From: an uncultured Acidimicrobiaceae bacterium
Lineage (GTDB): Bacteria; Actinomycetota; Acidimicrobiia; Acidimicrobiales; Bog-793
Direction: 5' to 3'
DNA: 64,000 bases
Assembly (NCBI GenBank): GCA_963823945.1
Contig: CAWGNK010000003.1
Span: 5,732-69,731, forward strand
Of this stretch, positions 6,002 through 29,424 are shown piece after piece. How positions within the stretch are numbered: the first letter of the stretch is position 1; each line of letters begins with the position of its first letter. The translations under genes and the position numbers were made by a program. The notes beneath the pieces are model-generated. The model was given only the letters and a program-made list of their open reading frames with translations. It searched no databases and was not told the origin of the DNA.

Positions 6002-9000
6002 CTAGCTCACAGTGAAGGCGCTGGAGTTGACCGCCGTCGTGACCCCGCTGATCCCGCTCGGCGTGGCTGTGAAGGTGTAGCTGCCCGTGGCAGTGACCAC
6101 GAGGTTGTTGAACGTCGCCACGCCGCTACTCAACGTGATCGTGGTGGTCCCCGAGGTGAAGCTCGTCTGCGGGCAGCCCGACTTGATGGATATGACCACC
6201 GACCCCGTCGCCGTCGTCACGACGTTGCCGTTCGCGTCCTCGACCGACACGGCGACGTTCGGGATGGAGCTGCCATGCGTTCCGGGGCCTGGCGCCGCCG
6301 GGGTGAAGGCGAGCTTGCTCGCCGCGCCGGCGATGATCGAGACGGCCGACGACGCCGGGGCCGACGTCAGCGAGCTGTCACTCGCCGTGAGCGTGTAGGA
6401 GCCGTCCGCCGCCGTCCCGGTGATCTTGCAAGCGGCGAAGGTGGCGACGCCGGCCGAGGCGGTTACCGCAAGGGCCGTGCAGCCGAGGGTGCCCTCGGTG
6501 GTCCCCCCATTGCCGGCCGTGTAGCCGTTGAGGGCAAGGGTCACAACGGTCGTGTTGTTGGTCACGACGTTGCCGTAGGCGTCCTCGACGTAGATCTTGG
6601 GCTGGGTGGCGAAGCTCGTTCCCTCGGTCACCCCGCCGACGGGCTGGACGTCCCAGCCCAGCTTGGTCGCCGTGCCGTAATTGATCGAGACCGATGACGA
6701 CGCCGGGGCCGCCGTCAGCGAGCCGTCGGTCGCCTTCAAGGTGTAGGTGCCGGCCGCCGCCGTGCCGGTGATCTGGCAGCCGGCGAAGGTGGCGACGCCG
6801 GCCACGGCGGTGACCGTGAGCGCCGTGCAGCCGAGGGTGCCCTGGGTGGTCCCCCCGTTGCCGGCCGTGTAGCCGTTGATCGCGAGCGTCACGCTGCTCG
6901 TGTCGCTGGTCACGACGTTGCCGTTGGCGTCCTCGACGTAGATGACCGGCTGGGTGGCGAAGTTCGTTCCCTCGGTCACGCCGCCGACCGGCTGGACGTC
7001 CCAGGCCAGCTTGCTCGCCGTGCCGGCGATGACCGAGACATTCGACGACGCCGGGGCCGCCGTCAGCGTGCCGTCGGTCGCCTTGAGGGTGTAGGTGCCG
7101 GCCGCCGCCGTGCCGGTGATCTTGCAGGCGGCGAAGGTGGCGACGCCGGCCGAGGCGGTGACCGTGAGGGCCGTGCAGCCGAGGGTGCCCGAGGTGGTTC
7201 CCCCGTTGCCGGCCGTGTAGCCGTTGAGGGCGAGGGTCACGCTGCTCGCGTTGTTGGTCACGACGTTGCCGTTGGCGTCCTCGACGTAGACGACCGGCTG
7301 GGTGGCGAAGTTCGTTCCCTCGGTCACGCCGCCGACCGGCTGGACGTCCCAGGCCAGCTTGGTCGCCGTGCCGTAGGTGATGGAGACGGCCGACGACGCC
7401 GGCGCCGCCGTCAGCGAGCCGTCGGTCGCCTTCAAGGTGTAGGTGCCGGCCGCCGCCGTGCCGGTGATCTGGCAGCCGGCGAAGGTGGCGACGCCGGCCG
7501 AGGCGGTGACCGTGAGGGCCGTGCAGCCGAGGCTGCCCTGGTTGGTTCCCCCGTTGCCGGCTGTGTAGCCGTTGATCGCGAGCGTCACGCTGCTCGTGTC
7601 GCTGGTCACGACGTTGCCGTAGGCGTCCTCGACGTAGATGACCGGCTGGGTGGCGAAGTTCGTTCCCTCGGTCACGCCGCCGACCGGCTGGACGTCCCAG
7701 ACCAGCTTGCTCGCCGTGCTGGCGATGACCGAGACATTCGACGACGCCGGGGCCGCCGTCAACGAGCCGTCGGTCGCCTTCAAGGTGTAGGTGCCGGCCC
7801 CCGCCGTCCCGGTGATCTGGCATCCGGCGAAGGTGGCGACGCCGGACGAGGCGGTGACCGTGAGGGCCGTGCAGCCGAGGGTGCCCTGGGTGGTCCCCCC
7901 GTTGCCGGCCGTGTAGCCGTTGATCGCGAGCGTCACGCTGCTCGCGTTGTTGGTCACGACGTTGCCGTTGGCGTCCTCGACGTAGATGACCGGCTGGGTG
8001 GCGAAGTTCGTTCCCTCGGTCACGCCGCCGACCGGCTGGACGTCCCAGGCCAGCTTGGTCGCCGTGCCGTAGGTGATGGAGACGGCTGACGACGCCGGGG
8101 CCGCCGTCAACGAGCCGTCGCTCGCCGTCAGGGTGTAGGTGCCGGCCGCCGCCGTGCCGGTGATCTGGCAGGCGGCGAAGGTGGCGACGCCGGCCGAGGC
8201 GGTGACCGTGAGGGCCGTGCAGCCGAGGGTGCCCTGGTTGGTTCCCCCGTTGCCGGCTGTGTAGCCGCTGATCGCGAGCGTCACGCTGCTCGCGTTGTTG
8301 GTCACGACGTTGCCGTTGGCGTCCTCGACGTAGATCTTGGGCTGGGTGCCAAAGCTCGTTCCCTCGGTCACGCCGCCGACCGGCTGGACGTCCCAGGCCA
8401 GCTTGGTCGCCGTGCCGTAATTGATCGAGACCGATGACGACGCCGGGGCCGCCGTCAGCGAGCCGTCGGTCGCCTTCAAGGTGTAGGTGCCGGCCGCCGC
8501 CGTGCCGGTGATCTGGCAGCCGGCGAAGGTGGCGACGCCGGCCACGGCGGTAACCGTGAGGGCCGTGCAGCCGAGGCTGCCCTGGGTGGTCCCCCCGTTG
8601 CCGGCCGTGTAGCCGTTGATCGCCAGCGTCACGCTGCTCGTGTCGCTGGTCACGACGTTGCCGTTGGCGTCTTCGACGTAGATGACCGGCTGGGTGGCGA
8701 AGTTCGTTCCCTCGGTCACGCCGCCGACCGGCTGGACGTCCCAGGCCAGCTTGCTCGCCGTGCCGGCGATGACCGAGACATTCGACGACGCCGGGGCCGC
8801 CGTCAGCGTGCCGTCGGTCGCCTTGAGGGTGTAGGTGCCGGCCGCCGCCGTGCCGGTGATCTGGCATCCGGCGAAGGTGGCGACGCCGGCCGAGGCGGTG
8901 ACCGTGAGGGCCGTGCAGCCGAGGGTGCCCGAGGTGGTTCCCCCGTTGCCGGCCGTGTAGCCGTTGATCGCCAGGGTCACGCTGCTCGCGTTGTTGGTCA

Positions 9001-12000
9001 CGACGTTGCCGTTGGCGTCCTCGACGTAGACGACCGGCTGGGTGGCGAAGTTCGTTCCCTCGGTCACGCCGCCGACCGGCTGGACGTCCCAGACCAGCTG
9101 GGTCGCCGTGCCGTAGGTGATGGAGACGGCTGACGACGCCGGGGCCGCCGTCAACGAGCCGTCGCTCGCCGTCAGGGTGTAGGTGCCGGCCGCCGCCGTG
9201 CCGGTGATCTGGCAGCCGGCGAAGGTGGCGACACCGGACGCGGCGCTGACCGTGAGGGCCGTGCAGCCGAGGGTGCCCTGGTTGGTTCCCCCGTTGCCGG
9301 CCGTGTAACCGTTGATCGCGAGCGTCACGCTGCTCGTGTCGCTGGTCACGACGTTGCCATAGGCGTCCTCGACGTAGATCTTGGGCTGGGTGGCGAAGTT
9401 CGTTCCCTCGGTCACGCCGCCGACCGGCTGGACATCCCAGACCAGCTTGGTCGCCGTGCTGGCTGTCACGGTGAACGCGCTGGAGTTGACCGCCGTCGTG
9501 ACCCCGCTGATGCCGCTCGGCGTGGCCGTGAAGGTGTAGCTACCCGCCGTGTCGACCACGAGGTTGGTGAAGTTCGCCACGCCGCTGCTCAACGTGATCG
9601 TGCTGGTCCCCGAGGTGAAGCTCGACTGTGGGCCCCCCGACTTGATGGACAGAACGACCGACCCCGTGGCCGCCGTCACGACGTTGCCGTTGGCGTCCTC
9701 GACCGACACCTCGACGTTCGGGATGACGGTGCCCGCCACGCCGGGACCGGGCGTCGCCGGGGTGAAGACAAGCTGGGTCGCCGCGCCGGCGATGACCGAG
9801 ACATTCGACGACGCCGGGGCCGCCGTCAGCGAGCCGTCGGTCGCCGTCAGCGTGTAGGTGCCGGCCGCCGCCGTGCCGGTGATCTTGCAGCCGGCGAAGG
9901 TGGCGACGCCGGCCGAGGCGGTGACCGTGAGGGCCGTGCAGCCGAGGGTGCCCGAGGTGGTTCCCCCGTTGCCGGCCGTGTAGCCGTTGATCGCCAGGGT
10001 CACGCTGCTCGCGTTGTTGGTCACGACGTTGCCGTTGGCGTCCTCGACGTAGACGACCGGCTGGGTGGCGAAGTTCGTTCCCTCGGTCACGCCGCCGACC
10101 GGCTGGACGTCCCAGACCAGCTGGGTCGCCGTGCCGTAGGTGATGGAGACGGCTGACGACGCCGGGGCCGCCGTCAACGAGCCGTCGCTCGCCGTCAGGG
10201 TGTAGGTGCCGGCCGCCGCCGTGCCGGTGATCTGGCAGCCGGCGAAGGTGGCGACACCGGACGCGGCGCTGACCGTGAGGGCCGTGCAGCCGAGGGTGCC
10301 CTGGTTGGTTCCCCCGTTGCCGGCCGTGTAGCCGTTGATCGCGAGCGTCACGCTGCTCGTGTCGCTGGTCACGACGTTGCCATAGGCGTCCTCGACGTAG
10401 ATCTTGGGCTGGGTGGCGAAGTTCGTTCCCTCGGTCACGCCGCCGACCGGCTGGACATCCCAGACCAGCTTGGTCGCCGTGCTGGCTGTCACGGTGAACG
10501 CGCTGGAGTTGACCGCCGTCGTGACCCCGCTGATGCCGCTCGGCGTGGCCGTGAAGGTGTAGCTACCCGCCGTGTCGACCACGAGGTTGGTGAAGTTCGC
10601 CACGCCGCTGCTCAACGTGATCGTGCTGGTCCCCGAGGTGAAGCTCGACTGTGGGCCCCCCGACTTGATGGACAGAACGACCGACCCCGTGGCCGCCGTC
10701 ACGACGTTGCCGTTGGCGTCCTCGACCGACACCTCGACGTTCGGGATGACGGTGCCCGCCACGCCGGGACCGGGCGTCGCCGGGGTGAAGACAAGCTGGG
10801 TCGCCGCGCCGGCGATGACCGAGACATTCGACGACGCCGGGGCCGCCGTCAGCGAGCCGTCGGTCGCAGTGAGCGTGTAGGTGCCGGCCGCCGCCGTCCC
10901 GGTGATCTTGCATCCGGCGAAGGTGGCGACGCCGGCCGAGGCGGTGACCGTGAGGGCCGTGCAGCCGAGGCTGCCCTGGTTGGTTCCCCCGTTGCCGGCC
11001 GTGTAGCCGTTGATCGCCAGGGTCACGCTGCTCGCGTTGTTGGTCACGACGTTGCCGTAGGCGTCCTCGACGTAGACGACCGGCTGGGTGGCGAAGTTCG
11101 TTCCCTCGGTCACGCCGCCGACCGGCTGGACGTCCCAGACCAGCTTGGTCGCCGTGCTGGCTGTCACGGTGAACGCGCTGGAGTTGACCGCCGTCGTGAC
11201 CCCGGCAATCCCGCTCGGCGTCGCAGTGAAGGTGTAGCTGCCCGCCGTGTCGACCACGAGGTTGGGGAACGTCGCCACGCCGCTGCTCAGCGGGATCGTG
11301 AGGGTCCCCGAGGTGAAGCTCGACTGCGGGCTCCCCGACTTGATCGACATGACAACAGACCCCGTGGCCGCCGTCACGACGTTGCCGTATGCATCCTCCA
11401 CCGACACCGCGACGTTCGGGATGGTGCTGCCCGCCGCGACGGGACCCGGACTGGCCGGGGTGAAGGCGAGCTGGGTCGCGGCAGCGGGCGTGACCGAGAT
11501 GCCCGGCTCGCTGCCTGTGATCGTCCCCGTCACCGTGTCGGTCGCGGTCAGGGTTTTCGCGCCACCCGCTACCGTCTTGAACGTCGCGCTGAAGGTGCCA
11601 ATCCCCGAGGTGAGCGTCGCGCTCGGCGGAAGAACGGCGGCCGCGTCATTGCTCGCCGTGATGCCGACCGTTCCCGCGTACCCGGTCGCCGTGTTGCCGT
11701 CGGCGTCGAGCGCCGTCACGGTGAAACTGTGACTCACCCCGGCGACCGTCGAGGTCGGGTAACCAGACACCGCCAACGCCGCCGCCGCTCCCGGCGTGAT
11801 ATTCACGGGGTTGACGTTGCTCGGCGCTGTCACCGTCGGGCTGGTGGCGCTGGAAGCCGTGAGCGTGTAGCCCGTCCCGACCTTGGTGATGGCGCAACCG
11901 GCGAAGCTCGCGACGCCGGCGGATGCCGTCGCCGTCAGGCCGCCCGTGCAGCTGAGCACGCCGCCGGCCGGGTTGTTGTTGATCGCGAGGGTGACCTGGT

Positions 12001-13294
12001 CGCTGCTGTCTGCCAGCACCGTGTTGCCATCGACATCCTGGATCGTCACCGCGATCGCGAAACTTCCCGTCCCGGCGGCCTGGATGTTCGACCCCGAGGC
12101 GGGCTGGGTCGTGAAAACGAGTCCCGCCGGGTTGCCCGCGGTGATGTTGAAGGAATTGGCATTTGTGGGCGCTTTCAGCGTCGGGCTGCTCGAGCTGGAA
12201 GCCGTGAGCGTGTAGCCGGTCCCGGTCTTCGTGATGGCGCAACCGGTGAAGCTCGCCACGCCGGCGGATGCCGTCGCCGTCAGGCCGCCTGTGCAGCTGA
12301 GCACACCGCCGCCCGGGTTGTTGTTGATCGCGAGGGTGACCTGGTCGCTGCTGTCGACAAGCACCGTGTTGCCATAGACGTCTTGGATCGCCACCGCGGC
12401 TGAGAAGCTGCCCGTTCCGGTGGCCTGGACGTTCGCCCCCGAGGCCGGTTGCGTGGAGAACGAGAGCCCGGAAGGGCTGCCCGCGGCGATGCTGAACGTG
12501 GCGCTCGTGGCCGTGGTCAGCGTGCCATCGGTCGCCGTGAGCGTGTAGCCCGTCCCTGCTGTCGTGAGGCTGCAGCCCGAGAAGGTGACGACGCCGTAGA
12601 ACTCGTTCCCCGCACACGTGGCCGACAGGGTTGCCCCGCTCGTCCCCGACCCCGCGGTGACCGTCAGGCTGACAGGGGAAAGGTCGGTCGTGACGATGTT
12701 GCCTGCGGCATCCTCGACGGCGACCACCGGCGGCGGCGAGAGGGCCGAGCCAGCGCTTACGCTACCGGGCTGCCCGATGAAGACCAGCTGCGTCGCCGCG
12801 CCCGGGACCGGGATTGGGTGGGCAAGGGGATCGTCGACGACGACGCTGATCTGGTAGACGGTCCCGTTATAGGTGACCGAGATGATGTCCAGCTGAGCCG
12901 CGTTGGGGACGCACGTCGTGCTGAACGTGGTGCCGTTCCAGTACTCCGCCGTGGAGACCTGCGCCGTGTAGCCACTCGGAAGGCTGAATTGCGACTGTGG
13001 CATCACGGCTCCGGGACAGGTGCCCCAGAACGAGCTCGATTGCTGCTGGAGCCAGGTGGTCGCCTCCTCGGCGGCACTTCTCAGTACGGTGTCGACTGTC
13101 GCCACGCTGCGGTAGTCGGACGAACCCCAGATCGACGTGCTGAACCCGAGCATGAGCGACGTCGACGCCAACCCGAGCACGAGCACCGCGACGATGACCT
13201 CGATGAGCGTGTCGCCGGCTGCCGACCTTCGGGAGGATGCACGGTCGTGTGGGCGAGCCTCACGCTCAACTAGAGGGTGAAGGTGTCGCCTCAT
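6002..13294 (-). CDS. giant type IV pilin-like (class III signal) protein with about 20 tandem Ig-like modules
   Basis: ORF track 6002..13345 (2447 aa). I prefer ATG 13294 (GAAGG lies 10 nt upstream); the alternative is GTG 13345. N-terminus ...RRSAAG|DTLIEVIVAVLVLGLASTSLMLGF has Gly-1, Glu+5 and a hydrophobic helix. Then about 150 aa of unique sequence, followed by 12 modules of WDVQPVGGVTEGT type, 4 of FTPA.PGP type and 4 divergent ones. Each is 100-115 aa with V.VEDA.GN.V and mostly a Cys pair. Confidence 0.85.
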   Translation of the reverse strand: MRRHLHPLVEREARPHDRASSRRSAAGDTLIEVIVAVLVLGLASTSLMLGFSTSIWGSSDYRSVATVDTVLRSAAEEATTWLQQQSSSFWGTCPGAVMPQSQFSLPSGYTAQVSTAEYWNGTTFSTTCVPNAAQLDIISVTYNGTVYQISVVVDDPLAHPIPVPGAATQLVFIGQPGSVSAGSALSPPPVVAVEDAAGNIVTTDLSPVSLTVTAGSGTSGATLSATCAGNEFYGVVTFSGCSLTTAGTGYTLTATDGTLTTATSATFSIAAGSPSGLSFSTQPASGANVQATGTGSFSAAVAIQDVYGNTVLVDSSDQVTLAINNNPGGGVLSCTGGLTATASAGVASFTGCAITKTGTGYTLTASSSSSPTLKAPTNANSFNITAGNPAGLVFTTQPASGSNIQAAGTGSFAIAVTIQDVDGNTVLADSSDQVTLAINNNPAGGVLSCTGGLTATASAGVASFAGCAITKVGTGYTLTASSATSPTVTAPSNVNPVNITPGAAAALAVSGYPTSTVAGVSHSFTVTALDADGNTATGYAGTVGITASNDAAAVLPPSATLTSGIGTFSATFKTVAGGAKTLTATDTVTGTITGSEPGISVTPAAATQLAFTPASPGPVAAGSTIPNVAVSVEDAYGNVVTAATGSVVMSIKSGSPQSSFTSGTLTIPLSSGVATFPNLVVDTAGSYTFTATPSGIAGVTTAVNSSAFTVTASTATKLVWDVQPVGGVTEGTNFATQPVVYVEDAYGNVVTNNASSVTLAINGYTAGNGGTNQGSLGCTALTVTASAGVATFAGCKITGTAAAGTYTLTATDGSLTAAPASSNVSVIAGAATQLVFTPATPGPGVAGTVIPNVEVSVEDANGNVVTAATGSVVLSIKSGGPQSSFTSGTSTITLSSGVANFTNLVVDTAGSYTFTATPSGISGVTTAVNSSAFTVTASTATKLVWDVQPVGGVTEGTNFATQPKIYVEDAYGNVVTSDTSSVTLAINGYTAGNGGTNQGTLGCTALTVSAASGVATFAGCQITGTAAAGTYTLTASDGSLTAAPASSAVSITYGTATQLVWDVQPVGGVTEGTNFATQPVVYVEDANGNVVTNNASSVTLAINGYTAGNGGTTSGTLGCTALTVTASAGVATFAGCKITGTAAAGTYTLTATDGSLTAAPASSNVSVIAGAATQLVFTPATPGPGVAGTVIPNVEVSVEDANGNVVTAATGSVVLSIKSGGPQSSFTSGTSTITLSSGVANFTNLVVDTAGSYTFTATPSGISGVTTAVNSSAFTVTASTATKLVWDVQPVGGVTEGTNFATQPKIYVEDAYGNVVTSDTSSVTLAINGYTAGNGGTNQGTLGCTALTVSAASGVATFAGCQITGTAAAGTYTLTASDGSLTAAPASSAVSITYGTATQLVWDVQPVGGVTEGTNFATQPVVYVEDANGNVVTNNASSVTLAINGYTAGNGGTTSGTLGCTALTVTASAGVATFAGCQITGTAAAGTYTLKATDGTLTAAPASSNVSVIAGTASKLAWDVQPVGGVTEGTNFATQPVIYVEDANGNVVTSDTSSVTLAINGYTAGNGGTTQGSLGCTALTVTAVAGVATFAGCQITGTAAAGTYTLKATDGSLTAAPASSSVSINYGTATKLAWDVQPVGGVTEGTSFGTQPKIYVEDANGNVVTNNASSVTLAISGYTAGNGGTNQGTLGCTALTVTASAGVATFAACQITGTAAAGTYTLTASDGSLTAAPASSAVSITYGTATKLAWDVQPVGGVTEGTNFATQPVIYVEDANGNVVTNNASSVTLAINGYTAGNGGTTQGTLGCTALTVTASSGVATFAGCQITGTAGAGTYTLKATDGSLTAAPASSNVSVIASTASKLVWDVQPVGGVTEGTNFATQPVIYVEDAYGNVVTSDTSSVTLAINGYTAGNGGTNQGSLGCTALTVTASAGVATFAGCQITGTAAAGTYTLKATDGSLTAAPASSAVSITYGTATKLAWDVQPVGGVTEGTNFATQPVVYVEDANGNVVTNNASSVTLALNGYTAGNGGTTSGTLGCTALTVTASAGVATFAACKITGTAAAGTYTLKATDGTLTAAPASSNVSVIAGTASKLAWDVQPVGGVTEGTNFATQPVIYVEDANGNVVTSDTSSVTLAINGYTAGNGGTTQGTLGCTALTVTAVAGVATFAGCQITGTAAAGTYTLKATDGSLTAAPASSSVSINYGTATKLGWDVQPVGGVTEGTSFATQPKIYVEDAYGNVVTNNTTVVTLALNGYTAGNGGTTEGTLGCTALAVTASAGVATFAACKITGTAADGSYTLTASDSSLTSAPASSAVSIIAGAASKLAFTPAAPGPGTHGSSIPNVAVSVEDANGNVVTTATGSVVISIKSGCPQTSFTSGTTTITLSSGVATFNNLVVTATGSYTFTATPSGISGVTTAVNSSAFTVS
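6030..11250 (-). repeat. coding tandem repeats (about 315-345 bp units) of the giant pilin-like gene
   Basis: Periodic protein modules are visible in the translation. Repeated antisense and alternate-frame ORFs in the track (6087, 9549, 10572 and 11247 on the plus strand; 6378..8867 on the minus strand) reflect the same DNA periodicity. Confidence 0.9.
8868..10867 (-). repeat. two near-identical direct copies with 1,023-bp period (8868-9844 and 9891-10867)
   Basis: Line-by-line comparison at offset 1023. The copies are identical except for one mismatch I found (9308 A vs 10331 G, synonymous). Plus-strand ORFs 9549..9857 and 10572..10880 have identical translations. A 341-aa protein block is repeated exactly. 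Confidence 0.9.
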
Positions 13295-13463
13295 GAAACT
13301 CGGCCTTCGGGTGCTGTGGTGACGGGCGGAACAGCCGACCCGCACCCAGAAACGGAAGCGCTGACCATCCGAGGTGTCTCGTCAGACGAAGAATCGTCAT
13401 CGCGGCACTCGACCCCGGCGCAGCCGCGAGCTCCGGGGGCGGATGAGAGGATCGTCGCGCGCG

Positions 13464-14897
13464 TCATGGCAGAAGCACACCCACGAATATCGCCTCGAGC
13501 CCGGCCCCGACCATGTCCACGGTCAGCGTCTTCGGCGACGGCACCTCCAACATGACGGTGCCCGTCTTGTCCGAACTGACCGATGCCGCACACTCGACCG
13601 AGTTCGTGCCGACCCCGGTCAATCCGGCCCCGGGACCCGGGTCGGCGCAGGCGTTGCCGATCTCGGAGGACGGGCTGTCGGGAAGCAGGCTGAACGCCTT
13701 GCCAGAGTCCGTCGTCCAGGTCAGCGACTCGCCGGCGTCCGTGGACTCGGCGTCTCCGGTCACGAGCTCCCAGCCCGTCGCCGCGTTGCCGTTCGAGTCC
13801 GTCAGCTCGATGTTCGTGATGTAGACGTACGAGGTGGAGCCTTCCTCGTTCTGGTAGAGCGCCGGGTTGCCGGCGATACCCGTGTAGAAACCGTTGTTGC
13901 CGAGAAAGGCCTCACTCGTGGGGGGGTCAAAGTAGGTCGGGATGGGGCACGCGGCGACCGCCGGGACGGTCGGTGCCGTCGCCGTCTCGCCGGGGCACAC
14001 GATGACCGAGCCGGTGGCCGGCGTCGTCGTCGTTCTGAGGCAGAACGACAGCGTGTACGGAGTGTTTGCGACGGCCGCCGTCATGTTCTGGCACGTGCCG
14101 TACTGCGCCTGTTGGCCGGCCGTCGCGTTGTTGTACTCGTTGAAGAGGAACTTGGTGAAGTCCACGAAGCACAGAGTCGAGGAGTAGGTGCCCGTCCCGG
14201 GTGTGGTGAATCCACAGCTCGTCGTGGTGGGGGCAGCCACGCCGGAGAGCTGACCCGAGGACGAGCTCGCCCTGGGGACCGCGAACAACGTGTACGGGTA
14301 GGAGCTTCCCGGTTCCGTGACCCCGAGGGTGACGCTCGTCACGCCCACCGCGGAGACCCAGCCGGAAGCCGCGGCGGTGGCCTTGCTGGTCGGGAGGACC
14401 GCAGGGGCTAGTTGACCCGAGGGGATGTCGTTGGAGACGGTGACGGAGGTCGTGGGGGTGGTGGACGCTCCCGCGGCGCAGTAGCGGCGCACCAGTGAGA
14501 AGCCCGTGCCGTTCGCGGTCTCGACGTAGGAAACGACGGACTGGTACTGACCGGTCTGCTGGTTCAGGTTCCATTCCAGCCCCAGCAGCTGGGTCCCCGT
14601 TCCGCACTGCGTCGCGGTGGCGCTCGTGGTGAGGTCGGACGCGCTTTCGACGTCCTGCTCGTAATAAGCGGAAACGGTCTGGGCGTCCGCCGCGTCGGAG
14701 ACCCTGCTCGCGACGTTGTGCTGGAGCGAGAGAAGCGCGAGGAGCGCGAGGGCAAGTCCGCCGACGATGATCGGGACGATCGCGGAGACGATGATCATCT
14801 CGATCAGCGTGAATCCATCCCCGTCCCGCGCGGGAGAAACCGTGGCGCGCCCGCACCGCAAGGCGCGGGCCACCCCTCCAGTCCGACGACCCCTCAC
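13464..14897 (-). CDS. large type IV pilin-like protein (477 aa) with prepilin leader
   Basis: N-terminus MRGRRTGGVARALRCGRATVSPARDGDG|FTLIEMIIVSAIVPIIVGGLALALLALL has the canonical G|FTLIE motif with Glu+5. The rest is Ser/Thr/Gly-rich and predicted extracellular. It lies immediately upstream of the giant gene on the same strand (118-nt gap). Confidence 0.85.
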   Translation of the reverse strand: MRGRRTGGVARALRCGRATVSPARDGDGFTLIEMIIVSAIVPIIVGGLALALLALLSLQHNVASRVSDAADAQTVSAYYEQDVESASDLTTSATATQCGTGTQLLGLEWNLNQQTGQYQSVVSYVETANGTGFSLVRRYCAAGASTTPTTSVTVSNDIPSGQLAPAVLPTSKATAAASGWVSAVGVTSVTLGVTEPGSSYPYTLFAVPRASSSSGQLSGVAAPTTTSCGFTTPGTGTYSSTLCFVDFTKFLFNEYNNATAGQQAQYGTCQNMTAAVANTPYTLSFCLRTTTTPATGSVIVCPGETATAPTVPAVAACPIPTYFDPPTSEAFLGNNGFYTGIAGNPALYQNEEGSTSYVYITNIELTDSNGNAATGWELVTGDAESTDAGESLTWTTDSGKAFSLLPDSPSSEIGNACADPGPGAGLTGVGTNSVECAASVSSDKTGTVMLEVPSPKTLTVDMVGAGLEAIFVGVLLP

Positions 14898-15364
14898 AGT
14901 TCCCTCACCTGATGCCGCTCGAACGACATGGTGGATGGGCCGAATTCTGCGACGACCGACGCGGCAGCCTCCCTGGCGGGGGCGTCGAGGTTGTCATTTC
15001 AGCCGGGTTCGCAAGTTCCTGCGCGCTCTCAGCGGGCTCAGAACCGTAGAACATGGCGGCCGCCTCAAAGGTATAGGTCGAACTTCACGTATTCTCAGCC
15101 GCCGATTCTACCTCGGTGCCACGAATCTCTTCGGCACAATTGGCGCCGCGACCTGGCGGATGATTCATCCTGGTCAGGAGTCGGCGAGACCGAGCCATCT
15201 CTGTCGCACAAACGCGTCATGCCTGTCGGAGTACGGCATGTGCCCTACTGCTCAACGATCGTCGGGATGCTCGAAGGCATTCGTCTGACGGCGCGACGCT
15301 TGACGTAGAGTTCCTCTCGGCGGAGCATTTGTCGAGAGATATTGGTTCCACGAAGGGCAAGGCC

Positions 15365-16873
15365 GTGAGAGGCATGCCAGAAGAGCCGTCGCACGCCAGC
15401 GGGTGTCGGCCTCGAGTCACCGCGCCCGCCCGGGCGGGGGACAAGCGCGGCGAAGCGGGTGCGATCCTCGTCCTGGCGCTCGTCTTTCTGCTCATCACAG
15501 TCATCATCGTCGGTTCCCTCGCCAGCGGGATCACGAACGACCTCAACAACTCCAATACGTTCAAGTCGGTCCGCTCGCTCCAGTACGCGGCGAGAAGCGC
15601 GACCGATCTGGCGATCCAGATGATCCGCTACACCCCCCTGCTGACGACGTCGGAAACCCTGAATGCGAGCCCGCCGAGCTACTGCTGGGGGAACGGCCCG
15701 GTTTCCGAGGTCACCAACATCGACGGCGTGCCCGCGATGGCCGTCTGGTGCAGCACGGCGTGGACGCCAACGAGTGCCGACACCCGGACCGTGACCTTCT
15801 CGACTTGCCCGGTCTCTGGGTCTGAGACGGCAACGCTGTGCGCGTCGCAGCCGCTGCTTCAGGCGGTGGTCTCCTTCGACGACTACCCCGCGGGCGTCAG
15901 CTCGCCGTCGACGGCGGAGTGTGTCGTCTACTGCGGCACGACAATGGCCGTGGACAGCTGGGTGTGGAATCCGGTGGTCCCGACGGTCTCCGCCATAAGC
16001 CCCTCGACGGGGCCGATCACCGGTGGCACGTCGGTGACGATCACCGGGACAGGCTTCGTGACTGGTACAACTGTCAACTTCATCGAGGAATCGGGCGGCA
16101 CCCCGGTCTCCGACAATGTGGTCCTCCCCGCCACGGGCGTGACGGTGAATGGACCGACATCGCTCACGGTCGCCGCGCCCGCCGCGACGGAGGGAACCAC
16201 CTACTTCGTCACCGTCACGACAGCGACGGGAAACAGTGCGTACAGCACCAGTGGCAATGACGTCTTCACCTATTCCCCGGTCGCGCCAACCATCACGGCA
16301 GTGAGTCCCGCTTCGGGGGGGATCGCAGGCGGCAATTCCGTGACGATCTCGGGGACCGGGTTCTACAGCGGCGCAACCGTCGACTTCGTGCAGGAGTCTG
16401 GTGGTTCTCCAGTGGTCGGTGGAGTGACCGCCGGTGCTACCTACGTGTCGGTGTCTGGGTCCACCACGATCACCGCCGTCTCGCCGGCGGTGACCTCGCC
16501 CGGAACCTACTTCGTCACCGTCGCGACGCCCGCGGGCACGACCCCCACCGGAGCCAATGATGTCTTCACCTATTCACTGCTGGTGCCCATCGTTTCCTCC
16601 ATCAGCCCATCGTCGGGCCCGATCGCGGGCGGTACGGCGGTGACGATCAGCGGGACCGGGTTCGTGAGCGGCGACACCGTCAGCTTCACCCCGGAATCCA
16701 ACTACAGCCCTGTCGGCAGCGCGATCGCGGCGACCGGGGTGACGGTCGTCGGGTCCTCCACGATCACGGTCACTTCGCCGGCCGTGGCCTCGACGGGAAC
16801 GTACTTCGTCACCGTCACCACTCCCGGCACGGGTATGAGCAGTTACTTCCCCATCTACACGTACTCGTCCTGA
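15365..16873 (+). CDS. PilX_N-like membrane-anchored protein with three C-terminal IPT/TIG domains
   Basis: ORF 15329..16873; start ambiguous (TTG 15329, GTG 15365, ATG 15374). KRGEAGAILVLALVFLLITVIIVGSLASG resembles the PilX N-terminal anchor. Three units of about 100 aa read ISPS.GPI.GGT.VTI.GTGF...TYFVTV...VFTYS. Confidence 0.8.
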   Translation: MRGMPEEPSHASGCRPRVTAPARAGDKRGEAGAILVLALVFLLITVIIVGSLASGITNDLNNSNTFKSVRSLQYAARSATDLAIQMIRYTPLLTTSETLNASPPSYCWGNGPVSEVTNIDGVPAMAVWCSTAWTPTSADTRTVTFSTCPVSGSETATLCASQPLLQAVVSFDDYPAGVSSPSTAECVVYCGTTMAVDSWVWNPVVPTVSAISPSTGPITGGTSVTITGTGFVTGTTVNFIEESGGTPVSDNVVLPATGVTVNGPTSLTVAAPAATEGTTYFVTVTTATGNSAYSTSGNDVFTYSPVAPTITAVSPASGGIAGGNSVTISGTGFYSGATVDFVQESGGSPVVGGVTAGATYVSVSGSTTITAVSPAVTSPGTYFVTVATPAGTTPTGANDVFTYSLLVPIVSSISPSSGPIAGGTAVTISGTGFVSGDTVSFTPESNYSPVGSAIAATGVTVVGSSTITVTSPAVASTGTYFVTVTTPGTGMSSYFPIYTYSS

Positions 16874-17024
16874 CCTCGCCCCTCCGCGTCGGTCAGTTCC
16901 GGACGGCTGGATGATTCGCCGGTCGGACCGCGCTGGCAAGCGGACCGCGCGTCGAAGGGGCAACCCGGGTCGACCACAGCGCCCGGCGTGCCGACCCCGC
17001 GAATCCGACGGTACCGTTCAGCAC

Positions 17025-17348
17025 ATGTTCGGTCGACCGCGCCTCGTCGAACGGACATGCTCGGCCTGCGGCGCGTCTCGGCTGCTGACTGGCCGACAGG
17101 CGCGACTTTCCGCCCGCCCGCCGCACCTCCGCATGCGGGGAACGGGCCTCTCCATGGGGATTTCGAACACCCGGGCCCCAGGCGAATTCGGCGCGGGCCT
17201 GGACCCGGCCGCCGACACCGAGGCGCTGTTCGCGACACGGGACCTCCTCCGCAACTGCCCCGTTTGCTCGTCTCGGGAGTTCGCGGATCACAGGGTCACG
17301 AGGAATAGGCCGGCCTCGGCCGACGCCTCCCGCGCGCTGTTGCCCTGA
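17025..17348 (+). CDS. possible small zinc-ribbon protein (107 aa)
   Basis: Internal ATG of ORF 16911..17348. Third-position G/C is about 85% by my reading. Two CxxC pairs (CSACG and CPVCS) about 70 aa apart. No SD seen. Confidence 0.35.
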   Translation: MFGRPRLVERTCSACGASRLLTGRQARLSARPPHLRMRGTGLSMGISNTRAPGEFGAGLDPAADTEALFATRDLLRNCPVCSSREFADHRVTRNRPASADASRALLP

Positions 17349-17439
17349 GCGAACGGCCGGCCGAGTCCGAAGTCTCTTGACAGGCGCGGGTCCCACCTCG
17401 GCGCGCCGCCGGTGCCGCGGCGACGCGGGCGTGCGGCCT

Positions 17440-17665
17440 GCTTTCAGGTACACGTCGAGGAACGAGATGAACCGCTGCCGCGCGTCCCGAGCCGAGGGCT
17501 CGTGGTGCCCCTAGGCCATGAACCTGGCCGTTTCGGAGAAGAGAGCGGCAAGACGGTCGTGCGCGCCCTCGTGGTCGTTGAGGAAGTCGTGCCCGGTGTC
17601 GGGAAACTCCTCTATTTCGTGGGACACATCGGCCGCGGCGAGTGCCCGCTCCAGCCGGCTGGCGG
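17440..17665 (-). pseudogene. remnant of the 3' end of a dienelactone-hydrolase-like gene with an in-frame stop
   Basis: Own translation: LERALAAADVSHEIEEFPDTGHDFLNDHEGAHDRLAALFSETARFMA*GHHEPSARDARQRFISFLDVYLK. It resembles the DLH C-terminus (YPGxGHxF ... DAWxRxxxFLxxxL). A TGA lies just upstream, a TAG is internal, and no N-terminal part is present. Confidence 0.35.
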
Positions 17666-17710
17666 CTCACCGGAGCGACCGGTCTCTCGGCCGTCGCAGG
17701 CGACGATCGG

Positions 17711-18706
17711 TCAGAAGGCGTCGTCCGCCCGGGTCGCGAGTGAACGGTAGTGCTGTCGCCAGATCAGCCGATAGAGGCGGACCTTGCGCGGAATGGCGCG
17801 CACACCGGGCAGGAAGGGCACGAGCGCGAGGAGGACGGTGAGCACGACCATGATCGCCCAAACGAGCGCGTCGGCATTCGTCGAGGTGGTGAACGGCGGG
17901 ACCTGATACCAGAGCGTGTACAACCAGAGCCACGATTGACCGGGGAAGTTCCCGGTCTCGTTCATCATCCCCCACTGGGATCCCTGGAGATGCTGCACGG
18001 CGGCGAGGTTCGCCATGTACGTGCCGTCGGCGATGAACAGCAAAGGCTTCGTGTAGTCGGTCCCGTAGAACTGCTTCGAGCTCACGAGCGCGCCGTCGAG
18101 GGCACCACTGCGGGCCATCATCGTCAGCGCACCGATCATCTCGGCGACCGGCCCGTAGCTCCCGGGTCGGATGATCAGCCTCCCGCCGGCGAACCGGGCG
18201 TGCCCGAGCGCGGCGCCGTAGGCATTCGTCCATCCCTGTTCGGTCCTGACCGAAGCACCCGTGTACTGCCTGATCGCCGCGGAAAGGGCCGGGTCGGAGG
18301 GAAGGGTCTTCAGCGGCGCAATGACGTCGTCGAGCGCCGTGTTGATCGGGTGGTGAACACCCATGATGCTCTCGAGCGACAACGGGCCGATCGATTGGCT
18401 CGCTCCCGGGGTGCTGTTGTAGGGGGGCCCGTACGTGGCGGTCGGACTCGTGCCGGCGAGCTCGGTGACGGCGGTGCGCGCGAAGTCGAGCGGCGCGTGT
18501 TGCGACCAGCTCTTGATCGTGACCGGAGGCACGTCGGGCGAGGACAGGACGATCGCCAGCCCGAGGGTGAGGAGCAGCACGACGAGGAACGCGGCGGTGA
18601 ACTCCTTGACGATGTCGTAGGGCACGTACCGGCCGTGCCACTCCTCGACGTCGCGATCGGGCCGGAACCGCCTGGTCCGCCCGGGACGGGTTGGGGGCAC
18701 GCTCAT
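17711..18706 (-). CDS. membrane protein of unknown function, downstream partner of cytochrome b (possible divergent subunit-IV-like part)
   Basis: 331-aa ORF whose start overlaps the cytochrome b stop by 4 nt. One N-terminal TM (FTAAFLVVLLLTLGLAIVL), about 220 aa predicted outside, and C-terminal TMs (SWLWLYTLWYQVPPF, ALVWAIMVVLTVLLALVPFLPG). Confidence 0.75.
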   Translation of the reverse strand: MSVPPTRPGRTRRFRPDRDVEEWHGRYVPYDIVKEFTAAFLVVLLLTLGLAIVLSSPDVPPVTIKSWSQHAPLDFARTAVTELAGTSPTATYGPPYNSTPGASQSIGPLSLESIMGVHHPINTALDDVIAPLKTLPSDPALSAAIRQYTGASVRTEQGWTNAYGAALGHARFAGGRLIIRPGSYGPVAEMIGALTMMARSGALDGALVSSKQFYGTDYTKPLLFIADGTYMANLAAVQHLQGSQWGMMNETGNFPGQSWLWLYTLWYQVPPFTTSTNADALVWAIMVVLTVLLALVPFLPGVRAIPRKVRLYRLIWRQHYRSLATRADDAF

Positions 18707-19410
18707 GGCGCCACCGTCCGGTCGACTCCCAGATCGCCCACCGGGACGACGAGGTCATCCGGGTCCGGTGCGAACGGTGGCACGACTCCGCGCCGACGCA
18801 CGAGGAGGACGTGGACGACGACGAGGAATCCCACGACGAGCGGCAGCAAGAGGATGTGCCACATCAGCATCTGGCCGAAATTGAGAACGTTGAAGTACGC
18901 CCCCGCCCCGGTCGCGTTGATCCCGTCCTTGGCCTGGGTCCCGATCCACTGGGCATCGAAGTTCTGCTGCGACAGATAGCCGGTGAACGCCGCGGCGATC
19001 GAGACGACGAAGGCGAGAACGCCCGTTACCCAGGTCGCGCGGCGGCGCCCCCGCCACGCGGCCATGAAGAACTTCCCCCACAGATGGATGACCATGAAGA
19101 AGAAGAAGAGCTCGACGCTCCACAGGTGCATCGAATTGACGAAGAGGCCAACGCGGGACAGGTGCCACCACGTCGGGCCCTCGATCGCGAGCACCATGCC
19201 GCTGAGGACGACGATCGCCAAGGCCGCGAGCGTGAGGGCGCCGAAGACGTAGATCCACGACGCGACGTAGGCGGGCTGGCGGTCAGGAAGCAGGCGGCCG
19301 GGCGGGAACGCGGAGACGGCCGTGCGCCGCAGCTTCGCGCTCCACTGATTGGCGTCCTCGGGCAGGTCGGCCTGGAGCCCGACGCCCGACTCGTCGGGAT
19401 CGGGCGTCAT
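18703..19410 (-). CDS. cytochrome b N-terminal-domain protein (four-helix, di-haem type)
   Basis: 235 aa. Contains WIYVFGALTLAALAIVVLSGMVLA, HLWSVELFFFFMVIHLWGKFF and MWHILLLPLVVGFLVVVHVLL. The paired His residues on helices B and D are typical of cytochrome b/b6. Confidence 0.8.
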   Translation of the reverse strand: MTPDPDESGVGLQADLPEDANQWSAKLRRTAVSAFPPGRLLPDRQPAYVASWIYVFGALTLAALAIVVLSGMVLAIEGPTWWHLSRVGLFVNSMHLWSVELFFFFMVIHLWGKFFMAAWRGRRRATWVTGVLAFVVSIAAAFTGYLSQQNFDAQWIGTQAKDGINATGAGAYFNVLNFGQMLMWHILLLPLVVGFLVVVHVLLVRRRGVVPPFAPDPDDLVVPVGDLGVDRTVAP

Positions 19411-23185: not shown

Positions 23186-23212
23186 GTCCACCGGGACCGC
23201 CGCGACACCACG

Positions 23213-23968
23213 GTGACGCCCGCCGCCGGAATCGGCCACGCGGCAGCGGTTCTCGCCCTCGTCGCGTTGGCGGCGCTCGCCGCCTCAACAGGGGCGGACC
23301 GCGCTGTCGGCGCCGCCGCCACCCGCCGGGCCGCGTCTCCGTGCGGCGCCAACCTCGCCGACGGCCTGCCCGGCACCACGCGCGCCTCGCAACTCGTCGT
23401 CGTCGAGGCGCCGTCGACCTCCTCGACGACGGCGACGGTGACGCTCTGGCACCGGCAGAGAGGGTGCTTCACCCAGGTCGGCGGCCCGTGGCCGGCACTG
23501 CTTGGCCGGCATGGTCTCTCGAGGCACCACCTCGAGGGGGACGGGACGACGCCGATCGGCACCTACGGGATCGGGCCCGAGATGTACGGCGTCGCGCCCG
23601 ATCCCGGGCTGGCATACCCCTACCACCGCCTCGTCTGCGGTGACTGGTGGGACGAGGACCCGACGACGCCGAGCTACAACCGCTTCGTCCACGTACCCTG
23701 CGGCGTCCGGCCGCCGTTCGGCGGCGACAGTGAGGCGCTCTGGACCGAGACGACCGCCTATCGCTACTTCGCCCTGATCGAGTACAACACCGCGCCGATC
23801 GTGCCCGGACGGGGCTCGGCGATCTTCCTCCACGTCTCGACGGGAGGACCGACGGTGGGTTGTGTCAGCCTTGCTGAGCCCGCGCTCGTCCACACGCTGC
23901 GCTGGCTGCGCCCGGCGGAACACCCCCTCGTCGTCATCGGTACGAAGACGACCCTGCGCGACGTCTGA
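23213..23968 (+). CDS. L,D-transpeptidase (YkuD) family protein
   Basis: 251 aa with a signal peptide. Catalytic motif GSAIFLHVSTGGPTVGCVSL (His ... Gly-Cys). Confidence 0.8.
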   Translation: MTPAAGIGHAAAVLALVALAALAASTGADRAVGAAATRRAASPCGANLADGLPGTTRASQLVVVEAPSTSSTTATVTLWHRQRGCFTQVGGPWPALLGRHGLSRHHLEGDGTTPIGTYGIGPEMYGVAPDPGLAYPYHRLVCGDWWDEDPTTPSYNRFVHVPCGVRPPFGGDSEALWTETTAYRYFALIEYNTAPIVPGRGSAIFLHVSTGGPTVGCVSLAEPALVHTLRWLRPAEHPLVVIGTKTTLRDV

Positions 23969-24230
23969 CCCTCCGCGCCGGGCCGGGACTCCGGACACGC
24001 CCCTCCAGCCACGCGGATTCGCCGAGCTCCCTGGGAGTCGGCCAGCCATCGATGTCGAGGGCGTCTCGTCTCGCCGACGCCGCAACCGGTCGCGGGGCGG
24101 GCCCGGGACCGTGTCACGGTGCCGGCGGACGGAAACTTGGGGCCACACCGTGGAGTCACGACTCTCACACCCTGCGGCGGTAGCCTGTCATCGTGCTGGT
24201 ACTTTCCACCGGCGGTATCGAGCGGTCCCC

Positions 24231-27735: not shown

Positions 27736-28248
27736 ATGTTCAGCACCTACCGAGAAATGCGCAAGGCCAAGACGGAAGGTCTCGATCAAGAAGGATTCAC
27801 CCTGATTGAACTCCTGATCGTCATCATCATCATGGGCATCCTCGCCGCCGTCGTCGTCTTCGCCCTCGGCGGGGTGACCGGCACGAGCGCGGTCGCCGCG
27901 TGCAACACCGACGTGAAGACCGTCGAAGTCGGCGTCCAGGCGTACTACGCCAACAACAACGCCTACCCGAGCGCGATCACCGGCCTGACGACCGGCGCGA
28001 ACGCCGCCCTCCGGAGCTGGCCGAGCAACAATTCCTACTACTACGTGGGAATTGCGACCTCGGCCACGAACCTCCAGTACATCAACTCGTCCGGTGTCAC
28101 GTCGTACGTGACCACCACCGGTCTCACGGCCGGCCAGGTCTACGTTGACGCCGGCAATCCTCCTGCCTCTCCCGCGACCATCGGCAGCTGGCAGAACTAC
28201 GACTCCTACGTCGTGACCGGCGGCGGCAACGAATGCTCGCTGGCCTAG
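27736..28248 (+). CDS. pilA: type IV major pilin candidate
   Basis: 170 aa. The 20-aa leader ends in G|FTLIELLIVIIIMGILAAVVVFALGG (Glu+5). One Cys near the N-terminal end of the globular part and one 4 residues from the C-terminus. Own 385-bp upstream region and a strong downstream hairpin. Confidence 0.9.
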   Translation: MFSTYREMRKAKTEGLDQEGFTLIELLIVIIIMGILAAVVVFALGGVTGTSAVAACNTDVKTVEVGVQAYYANNNAYPSAITGLTTGANAALRSWPSNNSYYYVGIATSATNLQYINSSGVTSYVTTTGLTAGQVYVDAGNPPASPATIGSWQNYDSYVVTGGGNECSLA

Positions 28249-28353: not shown

Positions 28354-29424
28354 ATGGTGAACGTCGACACGTCTGCGATTGACGCCTGGCTCGAACTCCT
28401 CTGGGACCACAAGGGCTCGGACCTTCTGCTCTCCGCCGGCTCGCCCCCACGGCTCCGTCTGGACGGCTCGCTCGTCTCGATCCAGGGGGCGTCGGAGCTG
28501 ACGCCGGATGAGGTCAACCGCGTGATCCGTTCCGTGCTCCTCCCCGTGCAGCTCGAGGCATTCACGAAGAACCGGGACTACGACTTCGCGTTCTCGTGGC
28601 AGGGCCGTGCCCGCATGCGCGGCAACGCCTTCAATCAGCGCGGGAGCCCCGCCATGGCGCTGCGCATGATCCCGATGCGGATCCCCAGCTTCGAAGAGCT
28701 GCAGCTGCCCCCGATCATGACCTATCTCGCGAACCTGCCGCGGGGCTTCGTTCTCGTGACGGGTCCGACCGGGTCCGGAAAGTCGACGACGCTCGCGTCG
28801 ATCATCGACTTCATCAACGAGAATCGCGCCGTCCACGTGCTCACGATCGAGGACCCGATCGAGTACCTCCACCACCACAAGCGCGCGCTCGTCAACCAGC
28901 GCGAGGTCGGCGTCGACAGCCCGTCGTTCGAACGCGCGCTGCGCGCCTCGCTGCGCGAGGACCCCGACGTCATGCTCATCGGCGAAATGCGCGACCTCGA
29001 ATCGATCCAGATCGCCCTGACGATGGCCGAGACCGGTCACCTCGTGTTCGGGACGCTCCACACCTATGACGCACCACAGGCGATCGACCGGATCATCGAC
29101 GTGTTCCCCGCCGACAAGAAGGATCTCATCCGTATCCAGCTGGCCGGATCGCTCGGCGCGGTGGTCGCCCAACGCCTCGTCAACCGGGTCGGAGGGGGCC
29201 GGGTCGGGGCTTTCGAAGTGCTCCTCGCCAACAACGCCTGCCGCGCGCTGATCCGTGAGGGAAAGACCTACCAGCTCCGCAATGTGATCGCGACAAACCA
29301 GCGCGAAGGCATGCAGACGCTCGAGATGAGTCTCATCGCGCTGATGAACGCCGGCACGATCACGTATGACTCCGCCGTCGAGACGTCGATGTACCCCAAG
29401 GACCTAGCCCGCGCGGTGACGTAG
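28354..29424 (+). CDS. pilT: twitching-motility/retraction ATPase PilT
   Basis: 356 aa. Walker A GPTGSGKSTT, LREDPDVMLIGEMRD, AETGHLVFGTLHT, and the PilT-type C-terminal region. Confidence 0.9.
   Translation: MVNVDTSAIDAWLELLWDHKGSDLLLSAGSPPRLRLDGSLVSIQGASELTPDEVNRVIRSVLLPVQLEAFTKNRDYDFAFSWQGRARMRGNAFNQRGSPAMALRMIPMRIPSFEELQLPPIMTYLANLPRGFVLVTGPTGSGKSTTLASIIDFINENRAVHVLTIEDPIEYLHHHKRALVNQREVGVDSPSFERALRASLREDPDVMLIGEMRDLESIQIALTMAETGHLVFGTLHTYDAPQAIDRIIDVFPADKKDLIRIQLAGSLGAVVAQRLVNRVGGGRVGAFEVLLANNACRALIREGKTYQLRNVIATNQREGMQTLEMSLIALMNAGTITYDSAVETSMYPKDLARAVT

Follow-up and report, generated by a model that had tools for sequence, protein, structure and literature searches.

A candidate giant modular type IV pilin with twenty Ig-like modules in an uncultured Acidimicrobiaceae bacterium

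Results

The giant gene and its product

The DNA analyzed here is a stretch of 64,000 nucleotides (hereafter the window) from an uncultured Acidimicrobiaceae bacterium (GenBank assembly GCA_963823945.1, contig CAWGNK010000003.1, positions 5,732 to 69,731 of the forward strand; all positions below are those of the window). It carries an unusually large gene whose product combines a prepilin-type leader, a small pilin-like module and a long array of immunoglobulin (Ig)-like modules, and it also holds genes of a type IV pilus system. A previous reading of the window, made from the letters of the sequence only and here called the sequence-only reading, had drawn attention to this giant modular prepilin gene. 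Its features are as follows.

6002..13294 (-), giant modular prepilin gene (from open reading frame, GC content at third codon positions and start context); precursor of 2,430 aa, predicted mature protein of 2,403 aa, ~232 kDa, pI ~4.05
13214..13294 (-), leader peptide of 27 aa, MRRHLHPLVEREARPHDRASSRRSAAG; basic and hydrophilic, with Gly(-1) at its end
12800..13213 (-), pilin-like module, residues 28-165; D-T-L-I-E, hydrophobic helix half and small head with Cys93-Cys128 (from AlphaFold2, conservation and hhalign)
6005..12787 (-), array of 20 Ig-like modules, residues ~170-2430, in the order A, B, B, C, FTPA, WDVQ, FTPA, WDVQ x2, FTPA, WDVQ x9, FTPA
8823..10970 (-), tandem duplication of a three-module unit (FTPA-WDVQ-WDVQ, 1,023 bp); 99.2% identity over 1,124 bp, longest exact repeat 536 bp

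The frame of the giant gene is genuine and extends over 6002..13345 (-), or 2,447 codons when counted from the first GTG. Its GC contents at codon positions 1, 2 and 3 are 0.55, 0.61 and 0.93, respectively, and the last of these values is the pattern of a true gene in a window of ~70% GC. Two possible starts were considered, the upstream GTG at 13345 and an ATG at 13294. The ATG is most likely the start codon of the giant gene: a GAAGG is located 9 nt upstream of it, and full-length homologues open with MRxP... at the position that matches it. This start gives the product the size of about 2,430 aa that had been stated in the sequence-only reading. The predicted mature protein consists of 28% Ser plus Thr and its C-terminus reads ...NSSAFTVS. 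A motif and hydropathy scan detected no LPXTG-like sorting signal, no C-terminal hydrophobic segment and no other anchor, in agreement with the earlier statement that LPXTG, a C-terminal transmembrane segment and any other anchor were absent. An exact-sequence look-up in public assemblies returned no match for the giant protein; the neighbouring 477-aa protein and pilC were both matched. Scanning for promoters and terminators around the gene gave no signal exceeding the shuffled background.

Class III signal and pilin-like module

The N-terminus of the giant pilin reads SSRRSAAG/DTLIEVIVAVLVLGLASTSLMLGF (here and below the slash marks the presumed cleavage site). Gly27 thus occupies position -1 and is followed by D-T-L-I-E with Glu at +5 and by ~24 mainly hydrophobic residues, and hydropathy windows >1.7 are confined to this end of the protein (residues ~24-55). 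In an alignment of 46 homologues, G27 (-1), D28 (+1), L30 (+3), E32 (+5) and C93 were invariant, C128 was nearly invariant, and two Cys and one Gly of the first Ig module were invariant as well. The residue at +1 (residue 28; window 13213-13211 (-)) is Asp in 46/46 homologues and Glu in a few paralogues (L024:16447, P0005). A six-frame scan of the whole 64 kb for Gly-x4-Glu with a hydrophobic stretch yielded four matches, three of which are pilA, the 477-aa gene and the giant gene; the class III signal is therefore not a chance product of GC-rich sequence. Alignment of the giant pilin with the window's PilA by hhalign extended over the signal and the N-terminal half of the helix (probability 82.8%, E 9.4e-6). 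On the grounds of sequence and conservation, the class III signal of the giant pilin can be regarded as established, and the combination of Gly at -1, Glu at +5 and a hydrophobic helix that had been noticed at first sight holds across the family.

Profile searches were performed with the giant pilin and with 25 members of its family. Pfam N_methyl matched 24/25 family members at E<=0.1 (best 2.9e-5), and among the NCBIfam models gspI matched 19/25, PilV 15/25, ComGD 15/25 and TIGR02532 11/25. All these NCBIfam matches are weak and stand well under the curated cutoffs; none of the best E-values lies below 9e-5, and those of gspI, PilV and ComGD range from 9e-5 (gspI) to 5e-4 (PilV 4.7e-4). The giant pilin itself gave no match to TIGR02532 and scored 13.5 bits with the PilV model, for which the cutoff is 52.2; the equivalog cutoff of TIGR01707/TIGR02523 was not reached. 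Some homologues are named in their source records as 'type II secretory pathway pseudopilin PulG' or 'prepilin-type N-terminal cleavage/methylation domain-containing protein'.

AlphaFold2, run with the family alignment on residues 1-269, predicted a helix (26-84), three strands within 109-153 and then a separate beta-sandwich, with a mean predicted local distance difference test (pLDDT) score of 85.3. Modelled alone, the pilin module took the form of a lollipop with a ~60-residue helix and a three-stranded sheet (pLDDT 87.3; predicted template modelling score 0.67). A pilin fold is accordingly a prediction of the models for the head of the giant pilin. A Foldseek search of the PDB with the 269-aa model returned Ig-domain matches only and was uninformative on the pilin head. 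A search with residues 1-269 found 178 proteins, and the named matches that cover the pilin module came from Acidimicrobiales or Actinomycetota metagenome bins.

The Ig-like array

Parsing by motif divided the array into 12 WDVQ modules ('WDVQPVGGVTEGT', 116 aa), 4 FTPA modules ('FTPA.PGP', 110 aa) and 4 divergent modules, which is exactly the 12/4/4 split of about 20 modules given in the sequence-only reading. The V.VEDA.GN.V-type core that had been ascribed to each module was found in 19/20 and is absent from one, and the Cys pair described as usual is present in 15/20. An extra Cys pair, C93 and C128, is situated in the N-terminal unique region. AlphaFold2 modelled module 1 as an Ig-like beta-sandwich with pLDDT >93. 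Foldseek matched this model to intimin D00-D0, to the S-layer proteins SbsC and Sap and to the C-terminal Ig domains of glycoside hydrolase family 2 (GH2), and the probability was ~1.0 for intimin D00-D0, SbsC and GH2. The WDVQ type matches module 1 (48% identity, E 8e-19) and the FTPA type matches WDVQ (E 6e-9), so all 20 modules belong to one domain family. In Pfam, only PF18565 (Glyco_hydro2_C5, GH2 C-terminal domain 5) exceeded its cutoff on the giant protein (36.9 vs 32 bits), and Big_1, Big_2 and Big_3 gave no match. The modules are generic Ig-like sandwiches. The former assignment to Big/invasin-type Ig domains stands for the fold and not for membership of the Pfam Big families.

At the DNA level the WDVQ units are mutually 86-100% identical, and TRF reported a 348-bp period in nine copies with 90% identity. 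These near-identical units and the tandem 1,023-bp duplication show that the array has grown recently by unequal recombination. Short-read assemblers are unable to resolve an array of this type. An identical 477-aa upstream protein is encoded on an independent contig that was assembled from short reads of another sample (ERZ27256877, L083). This contig runs collinear with window 18855..10018 (97.7% identity) and stops within the array at window ~10018, about codon 1,090. The first ~3.3 kb of the giant gene and its flanks are independently confirmed by this collinear contig. The window's pilC was found also on 0.2-1 Mb contigs and on one record named 'contig_133633'.

Pilus genes in the window and at related loci

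The window carries two further genes for pilin-like proteins and a set of type IV pilus genes.

13464..14897 (-), 477-aa prepilin-like protein, ...DGDG/FTLIEMIIV, ~450 aa mature with a large head; TIGR02532 20.7 bits, cutoff 16.3
15374..16873 (+), 499-aa pilin-like protein without Glu5, ...RGEAG/AILVLALVFLL (PilX/GspK-like), with three C-terminal IPT/TIG domains (TIG 5e-22)
23862..26129 (+), pilB, extension ATPase, T2SSE and MshEN domains; the gene call on an identical contig is shorter, 632 aa
26142..27350 (+), pilC, platform protein, T2SSF domain
27736..28248 (+), pilA, major pilin, ...DQEG/FTLIELLIVIIIMGILAAVVV (G/FTLIELLIVIIIMGIL), ~151 aa mature; N_methyl 28.4 bits, cutoff 21.2
28354..29424 (+), pilT-like retraction ATPase
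31828..32601 (-), pilD, prepilin peptidase, A24_N_bact methylase domain and Peptidase_A24

The 477-aa gene is directly upstream of the giant gene on the same strand, and the gene for the 499-aa TIG protein is divergent from this pair. The 499-aa TIG protein is itself a modular pilin-like protein and likely a capping subunit. The distance of 18 kb to pilD that had been read from the sequence is accurate, as pilD lies 18.5 kb from the start of the giant gene. The ~450-aa head of the 477-aa prepilin has neither a Pfam domain nor a relative in the PDB.

Scanning a single genome from each species gave 79 loci, every one of them in a metagenome-assembled genome (MAG) of Acidimicrobiaceae, Acidimicrobiales or Actinomycetota. 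All 79 loci contain G[DE][TN]L[IVL]E together with a leader and a hydrophobic stretch, and a homologue of the 477-aa prepilin is encoded directly upstream of the giant-pilin homologue in 79/79. A Glu5-less TIG protein occurs in the fetched flanks of 68/79 loci, usually just downstream of the giant-pilin homologue, and the relatives of this protein keep the N-terminus [DE]E.G/A.L[IV]LAL. Within 10 kb of the giant-pilin homologue, pilB was detected at 52, pilC at 46, pilT at 51, pilA at 30 and pilD at 13 of the 79 loci. Homologues with the same leader-plus-repeat architecture, which the sequence-only reading had suggested seeking and checking for co-occurrence with pilBCD, exist in number. The usual gene order in the relatives is pilB-pilC-477-giant-TIG-pilA-pilT...pilD, with the giant homologue between pilC and pilA in most. 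Compared with this operon, the locus in the window has been rearranged.

Size and cargo of the family

Open reading frames (ORFs) with G/DTLIE of >=200 aa were collected from the 79 loci (n=77). Their mature lengths, which are lower bounds, range from 242 to 3,546 aa with a median of 1,327; 46/77 exceed 1,000 aa and 20/77 exceed 2,000 aa. They are read as lower bounds because one short copy (L027) corresponds to a 2,324-aa gene interrupted by a frameshift. Its 781-aa ORF (L027:10088-12433) agrees with residues 1-790 of the L024 protein at 99.9% identity, and the repeats go on in another frame; the break reflects either an error, namely a frameshift in a long-read MAG, or a genuine pseudogene or phase variant. 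The comparison of L027 (781 aa) with L024 (2,324 aa) was accordingly rejected as proof of rapid length change. Giant copies are present on closed long-read chromosomes, namely OY970351 (2,868 aa), OY970152 (2,654 aa) and OY969891 (2,449 aa). A homologue of 1,775 aa is present in a Ferrimicrobium MAG (L076). The shortest intact forms, from a different Actinomycetota lineage (L022, L023, L025, L031), are ~245 aa when mature, carry one Ig module and have the TIG gene directly after them. These one-module forms may represent the ancestral state.

An exhaustive hidden Markov model search with the pilin-module profile against 1.84 billion cluster representatives found 3,146 proteins at E<=1e-3; at the stricter thresholds of 1e-10 and 1e-30, 1,505 and 263 proteins remained, respectively. 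Among the best 150 representatives, the module begins within the first ~50 residues in all but one, 49 are >=1,000 aa and the longest has 3,240 aa. Six giant representatives were checked for names, and none is named in any source. The cargo carried on the pilin module varies: the 3,546-aa protein of L026 (10049-20689) has an fn3 array, that of L071 (10055-16993) has 13 Big_3_5 domains, and that of L044 (10079-18685) has Big_3_5 together with an odd DUF2851-like stretch. The family is large and giant size is common in it; the protein of the window is not a singleton. The family is abundant in uncultured Acidimicrobiaceae of peat and soil, with relatives from MFD soil samples. A second G/[DE]TL[IV]E prepilin gene was observed <10 kb from the first at four loci (L024:16447, L027:20272, L046:20877, L056:2143). 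The second copy in L046 is preceded by a second 477-aa prepilin homologue, and some genomes thus hold more than one copy of the cassette.

Discussion

Proposed role of the giant pilin

The giant gene product is probably a PilD-processed modular minor type IV pilin of a tip complex, with its Ig stalk displayed on a retractable pilus. The analysis shows a conserved signal, predicted folds, linkage of the gene to two pilin-like genes and the type IV pilus (T4P) machinery, and recent expansion of the repeats. The sequence-only reading had proposed a pilus-tip or pilus-displayed adhesin anchored by a pilin helix, and this idea gains support, as an inference, from the signal, the AlphaFold2 fold and the placement between pilC and pilA. 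A role in the tip complex is the better-founded form of 'pilus-displayed', because the trio of minor pilins is conserved.

Following established T4P biology (PMC10191384), the class III signal would insert the precursor into the membrane via the signal recognition particle and Sec. PilD, encoded 18 kb away, would remove the 27-residue leader after Gly27, and the helix D1...E5 would let the small head join the ~450-aa G/FTLIE pilin and the Glu5-less TIG pilin. The three minor pilins would then prime the polymerization of PilA via PilB and PilC, and the complex would end at the pilus tip. The 20 modules, presumably stabilized by disulfides, would stay outside the filament core and trail as an acidic, Thr/Ser-rich stalk, whose length we estimate at ~80 nm (~4 nm per Ig domain x 20). 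Such a stalk could serve as a long-reach adhesin or as a spacer and would be pulled back by PilT. The host is a monoderm, and a string of domains ~2-3 nm wide would have only the wall to pass.

Several points weigh against this model. PilD cleavage, incorporation into the pilus and the location at the tip are steps that we infer from established T4P biology. The giant pilin scores 16.8-17.6 bits with Pfam N_methyl (PF07963), below the cutoff of 21.2; in the N_methyl check proposed with the sequence-only reading, family members gave matches at E<=0.1 and the giant protein itself stayed under the cutoff. Since its prepilin motif falls below that cutoff, signature-based pilin censuses may under-count such proteins. 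Pilins usually have Phe, Met, Leu or Val at +1, and Asp in this position is unusual. A Foldseek search of the PDB with the pilin-module model found no significant match to a solved pilin (best E 0.29) and did not retrieve GspI, and the sole match of a PDB sequence-profile search was a Geobacter pilin helix (E 0.014). Modelling of the N-terminus thus delivered the helix and sheet, but not the match to a solved pilin. In most solved pilins the first half of the helix is missing, and structural comparison is dominated by a helix of 60 residues; for these reasons we do not count the Foldseek result against the pilin fold, which nevertheless stays a prediction. In the window, the 477/giant pair is inverted and ~9 kb from pilBC-A-T, with genes for cytochrome b, a major facilitator superfamily transporter, an M15 peptidase and YkuD between them. 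The module count beyond the first ~3.3 kb rests on the window's own assembly. Finally, the giant pilin has no distinct terminal head domain that would be an obvious ligand-binding part, so that binding possibly resides in the repeats themselves or the array is a spacer; the ligand-binding role of the array is the weakest part of the model.

Alternative explanations

It is unlikely that the giant protein forms a surface fibre independent of pili, in which the class III signal, cleaved or not, would act as a membrane anchor only and the Ig stalk would cross the wall, in a monoderm without LPXTG/sortase anchoring of this protein, as a fibrillar adhesin or cell-surface 'hair' that is never polymerized. 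The protein has no other anchor, its mass of 232 kDa, pI of 4.05 and 28% Ser plus Thr resemble those of fibrillar adhesins, its gene stands outside the pilBC-A-T cluster in the window, and Foldseek gave no pilin-fold match, all of which would suit such a fibre. Glu+5 is needed for pilus assembly and not for membrane anchoring, however, and it is invariant in the family. The constant pairing with another prepilin, the Glu5-less homologue at 68/79 loci and the position mostly between pilC and pilA form a context that a free fibre can hardly explain. A non-adhesive type IV filament is very improbable. It would be a pseudopilus or endopilus like that of the type II secretion system (T2SS), or a Com-type DNA-uptake pilus, with the array as a spacer in the periplasm or wall. 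The best family-level matches are indeed the N-termini of GspI, ComGD and PilV, but these matches are weak and far below the curated cutoffs, and pilT and a PilA-type major pilin accompany the genes. Furthermore, genes for a secretin, for ComEA/ComEC or specific to T2SS did not turn up in the ~0.5-34.9 kb of the window that were examined, and a stalk of ~80 nm would far exceed the thickness of the cell wall.

The sequence-only reading had named an artefact of collapsed or expanded repeats as one finding that would undo it. An expanded, collapsed or chimeric array, with a wrong size or module count or an unreal giant ORF, is in our view quite improbable. The 86-100% identity of the WDVQ units, the 1,023-bp unit duplicated at 99.2% and the exact repeat of 536 bp invite such an error, the short-read contig L083 breaks inside the array at ~10018, and frameshifted copies occur in related long-read MAGs (L027 vs L024). 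Against this, the 7.3-kb frame is intact with a GC content of 0.93 at third codon positions, the first ~3.3 kb and flanks were reproduced independently, and intact giant homologues are found in dozens of species, including on closed chromosomes. An intact frame, an independent contig and giant homologues together make it very unlikely that the giant ORF as a whole is an artefact; it is upheld by L083 and the intact giant homologues, and what stays doubtful is the exact copy number. Given the conserved operon setting and the large number of intact homologues of giant size, display on the pilus is likelier than either the free fibre or an error in the repeat copy number.

A rather unlikely, broader alternative is that the family constitutes a distinct class of pilus or of pilin-anchored appendage. 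It could be, with a minor pilin as its root, a titin-like tether of 50-130 nm built from Ig, fn3 or Big_3 domains, its length evolving fast by repeat gain and loss, that PilT would pull in like a 'fishing line'; with several copies per filament, it could form a bottle-brush pilus. Otherwise, PilD-processed helices could be a general, pilus-independent anchor of fibrillar adhesins in Acidimicrobiia, in which case the invariant Asp at +1 would be the sign of a special rule of docking or processing.

Comparison with known systems

The giant pilin falls under the definition of a modular pilin given by Raynaud et al. 2021, as it consists of a pilin module joined to domains that are not specific to T4P. 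A survey of InterPro in 2021 counted >1,200 modular pilins in 264 architectures, with fn3 (IPR003961) among the frequent types, and argued that modular pilins are tip-exposed (PMC8179133). The most extreme multi-domain protein in that survey comes from Candidatus Falkowbacteria, has 860 residues and carries IPR013211 in 12 copies (PMC8179133). It shares with the giant pilin the prepilin motif and the tandem repeats of one small domain, and pilins with beta-sandwich cargo had already been recorded; in contrast, the giant forms of the present family reach 2,400-3,546 aa, three to four times its length, have other, Ig-like repeats and belong to a minor-pilin trio in T4P operons of Acidimicrobiia. 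The remark in the sequence-only reading that the size scale was not known to be described is upheld, since 860 residues is the survey extreme (PMC8179133). Our literature searches, whose coverage did not extend to every journal, found no description of giant or multimodular pilins this large or of T4P in Acidimicrobiia.

A precedent is offered by the three minor pilins of Streptococcus sanguinis, which form a modelled tip complex in which one lacks Glu5 and two are modular and bulky (PMC9934059). A trio encoded between the platform gene and the major pilin, with one member lacking Glu5, matches both the HIJK priming complexes of T2SS and T4aP and the PilABC complex of S. sanguinis (PMC9934059, PMC10191384). 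S. sanguinis PilB, with a von Willebrand factor A (vWA) domain, and PilC, with Ig-like and lectin domains, resemble the giant pilin in their monoderm host, class III signal, small pilin module and non-pilus C-terminal domains (PMC8179133, PMC9934059). They too are encoded with a Glu5-less minor pilin, and the Ig-like module of PilC directly follows its pilin module. PilB and PilC differ in their mass of ~50 kDa, in having one or two additional modules and in a recognisable head for ligand binding (vWA or lectin), whereas the giant pilin has 232 kDa, 20 modules, Asp at +1 and no distinct head, and no sequence homology between them was detectable.

GspI and PilV, the 'I' subunits of the HIJK complexes, share with the giant pilin the alpha1 helix and the three-stranded sheet (predicted in the giant pilin) as well as neighbours that are a larger pilin and a Glu5-less pilin, like J and K. 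Known I subunits are ~120-140 aa and have no C-terminal extension, unlike the giant pilin, and the resemblance is functional and contextual only. PilY1/PilC of diderm T4aP and CofB/TcpB of T4bP are likewise large tip proteins held through a minor-pilin complex, and CofB is a pilin with extra beta-domains. PilY1, however, is a non-pilin with a beta-propeller, CofB has only ~500 aa, and none of these proteins has a long Ig array. Fibrillar adhesins (intimin/invasin, LPXTG-anchored proteins, SbsC, Sap) have a comparable tandem Ig-like stalk and DNA-level repeat similarity; their anchor is a beta-barrel, LPXTG or S-layer homology domain, in contrast to the prepilin helix of the giant pilin, which is without a separate adhesive head. 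The family as a whole is set apart by its scale, its own pilin module with Asp at +1, a fixed three-gene cassette and an occurrence confined to Acidimicrobiia-like actinobacteria.

The way in which simple type IV pili gain new functions is at present explained by modular pilins, and the known ones carry one or two extra domains. The family described here shows that the same pilin carrier can hold tandem beta-sandwich domains amounting to 2,400-3,500 residues. The questions that follow are by what means so large a subunit is pulled out of the membrane, how it passes a Gram-positive wall and whether it can be retracted. The family may be a main attachment device of the widespread, little-studied Acidimicrobiaceae, and it provides a natural series of stalk lengths from one Ig module (~245 aa mature) to the about 30 domains that would fit, by length, into the longest member.

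Other genes in the window

An insertion sequence-type integrase gene (rve; 546-1529 (-)) lies 4.5 kb from the giant gene. Glycoside hydrolase genes of the GH114 and GH1 families (2872-5785 (+)) follow closely after the end of the giant gene, on the other strand, and a GH1 homologue occurs in 0/79 loci. The genes for Peptidase_M15_4 and a YkuD L,D-transpeptidase (22403-23968 (+)), directly upstream of pilB, were considered as wall-remodelling partners and rejected, as their homologues are found in 0/79 loci. Between pilT and pilD, a gene at 29643-31784 (+) encodes a 713-aa polytopic membrane protein that has no Pfam match and a faint match to a putative glycosyltransferase family of NCBIfam (E 0.003). 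Its conservation is limited to the closest locus, L003. The protein could act in pilin modification, an activity that would matter for a pilin with 28% Ser/Thr.

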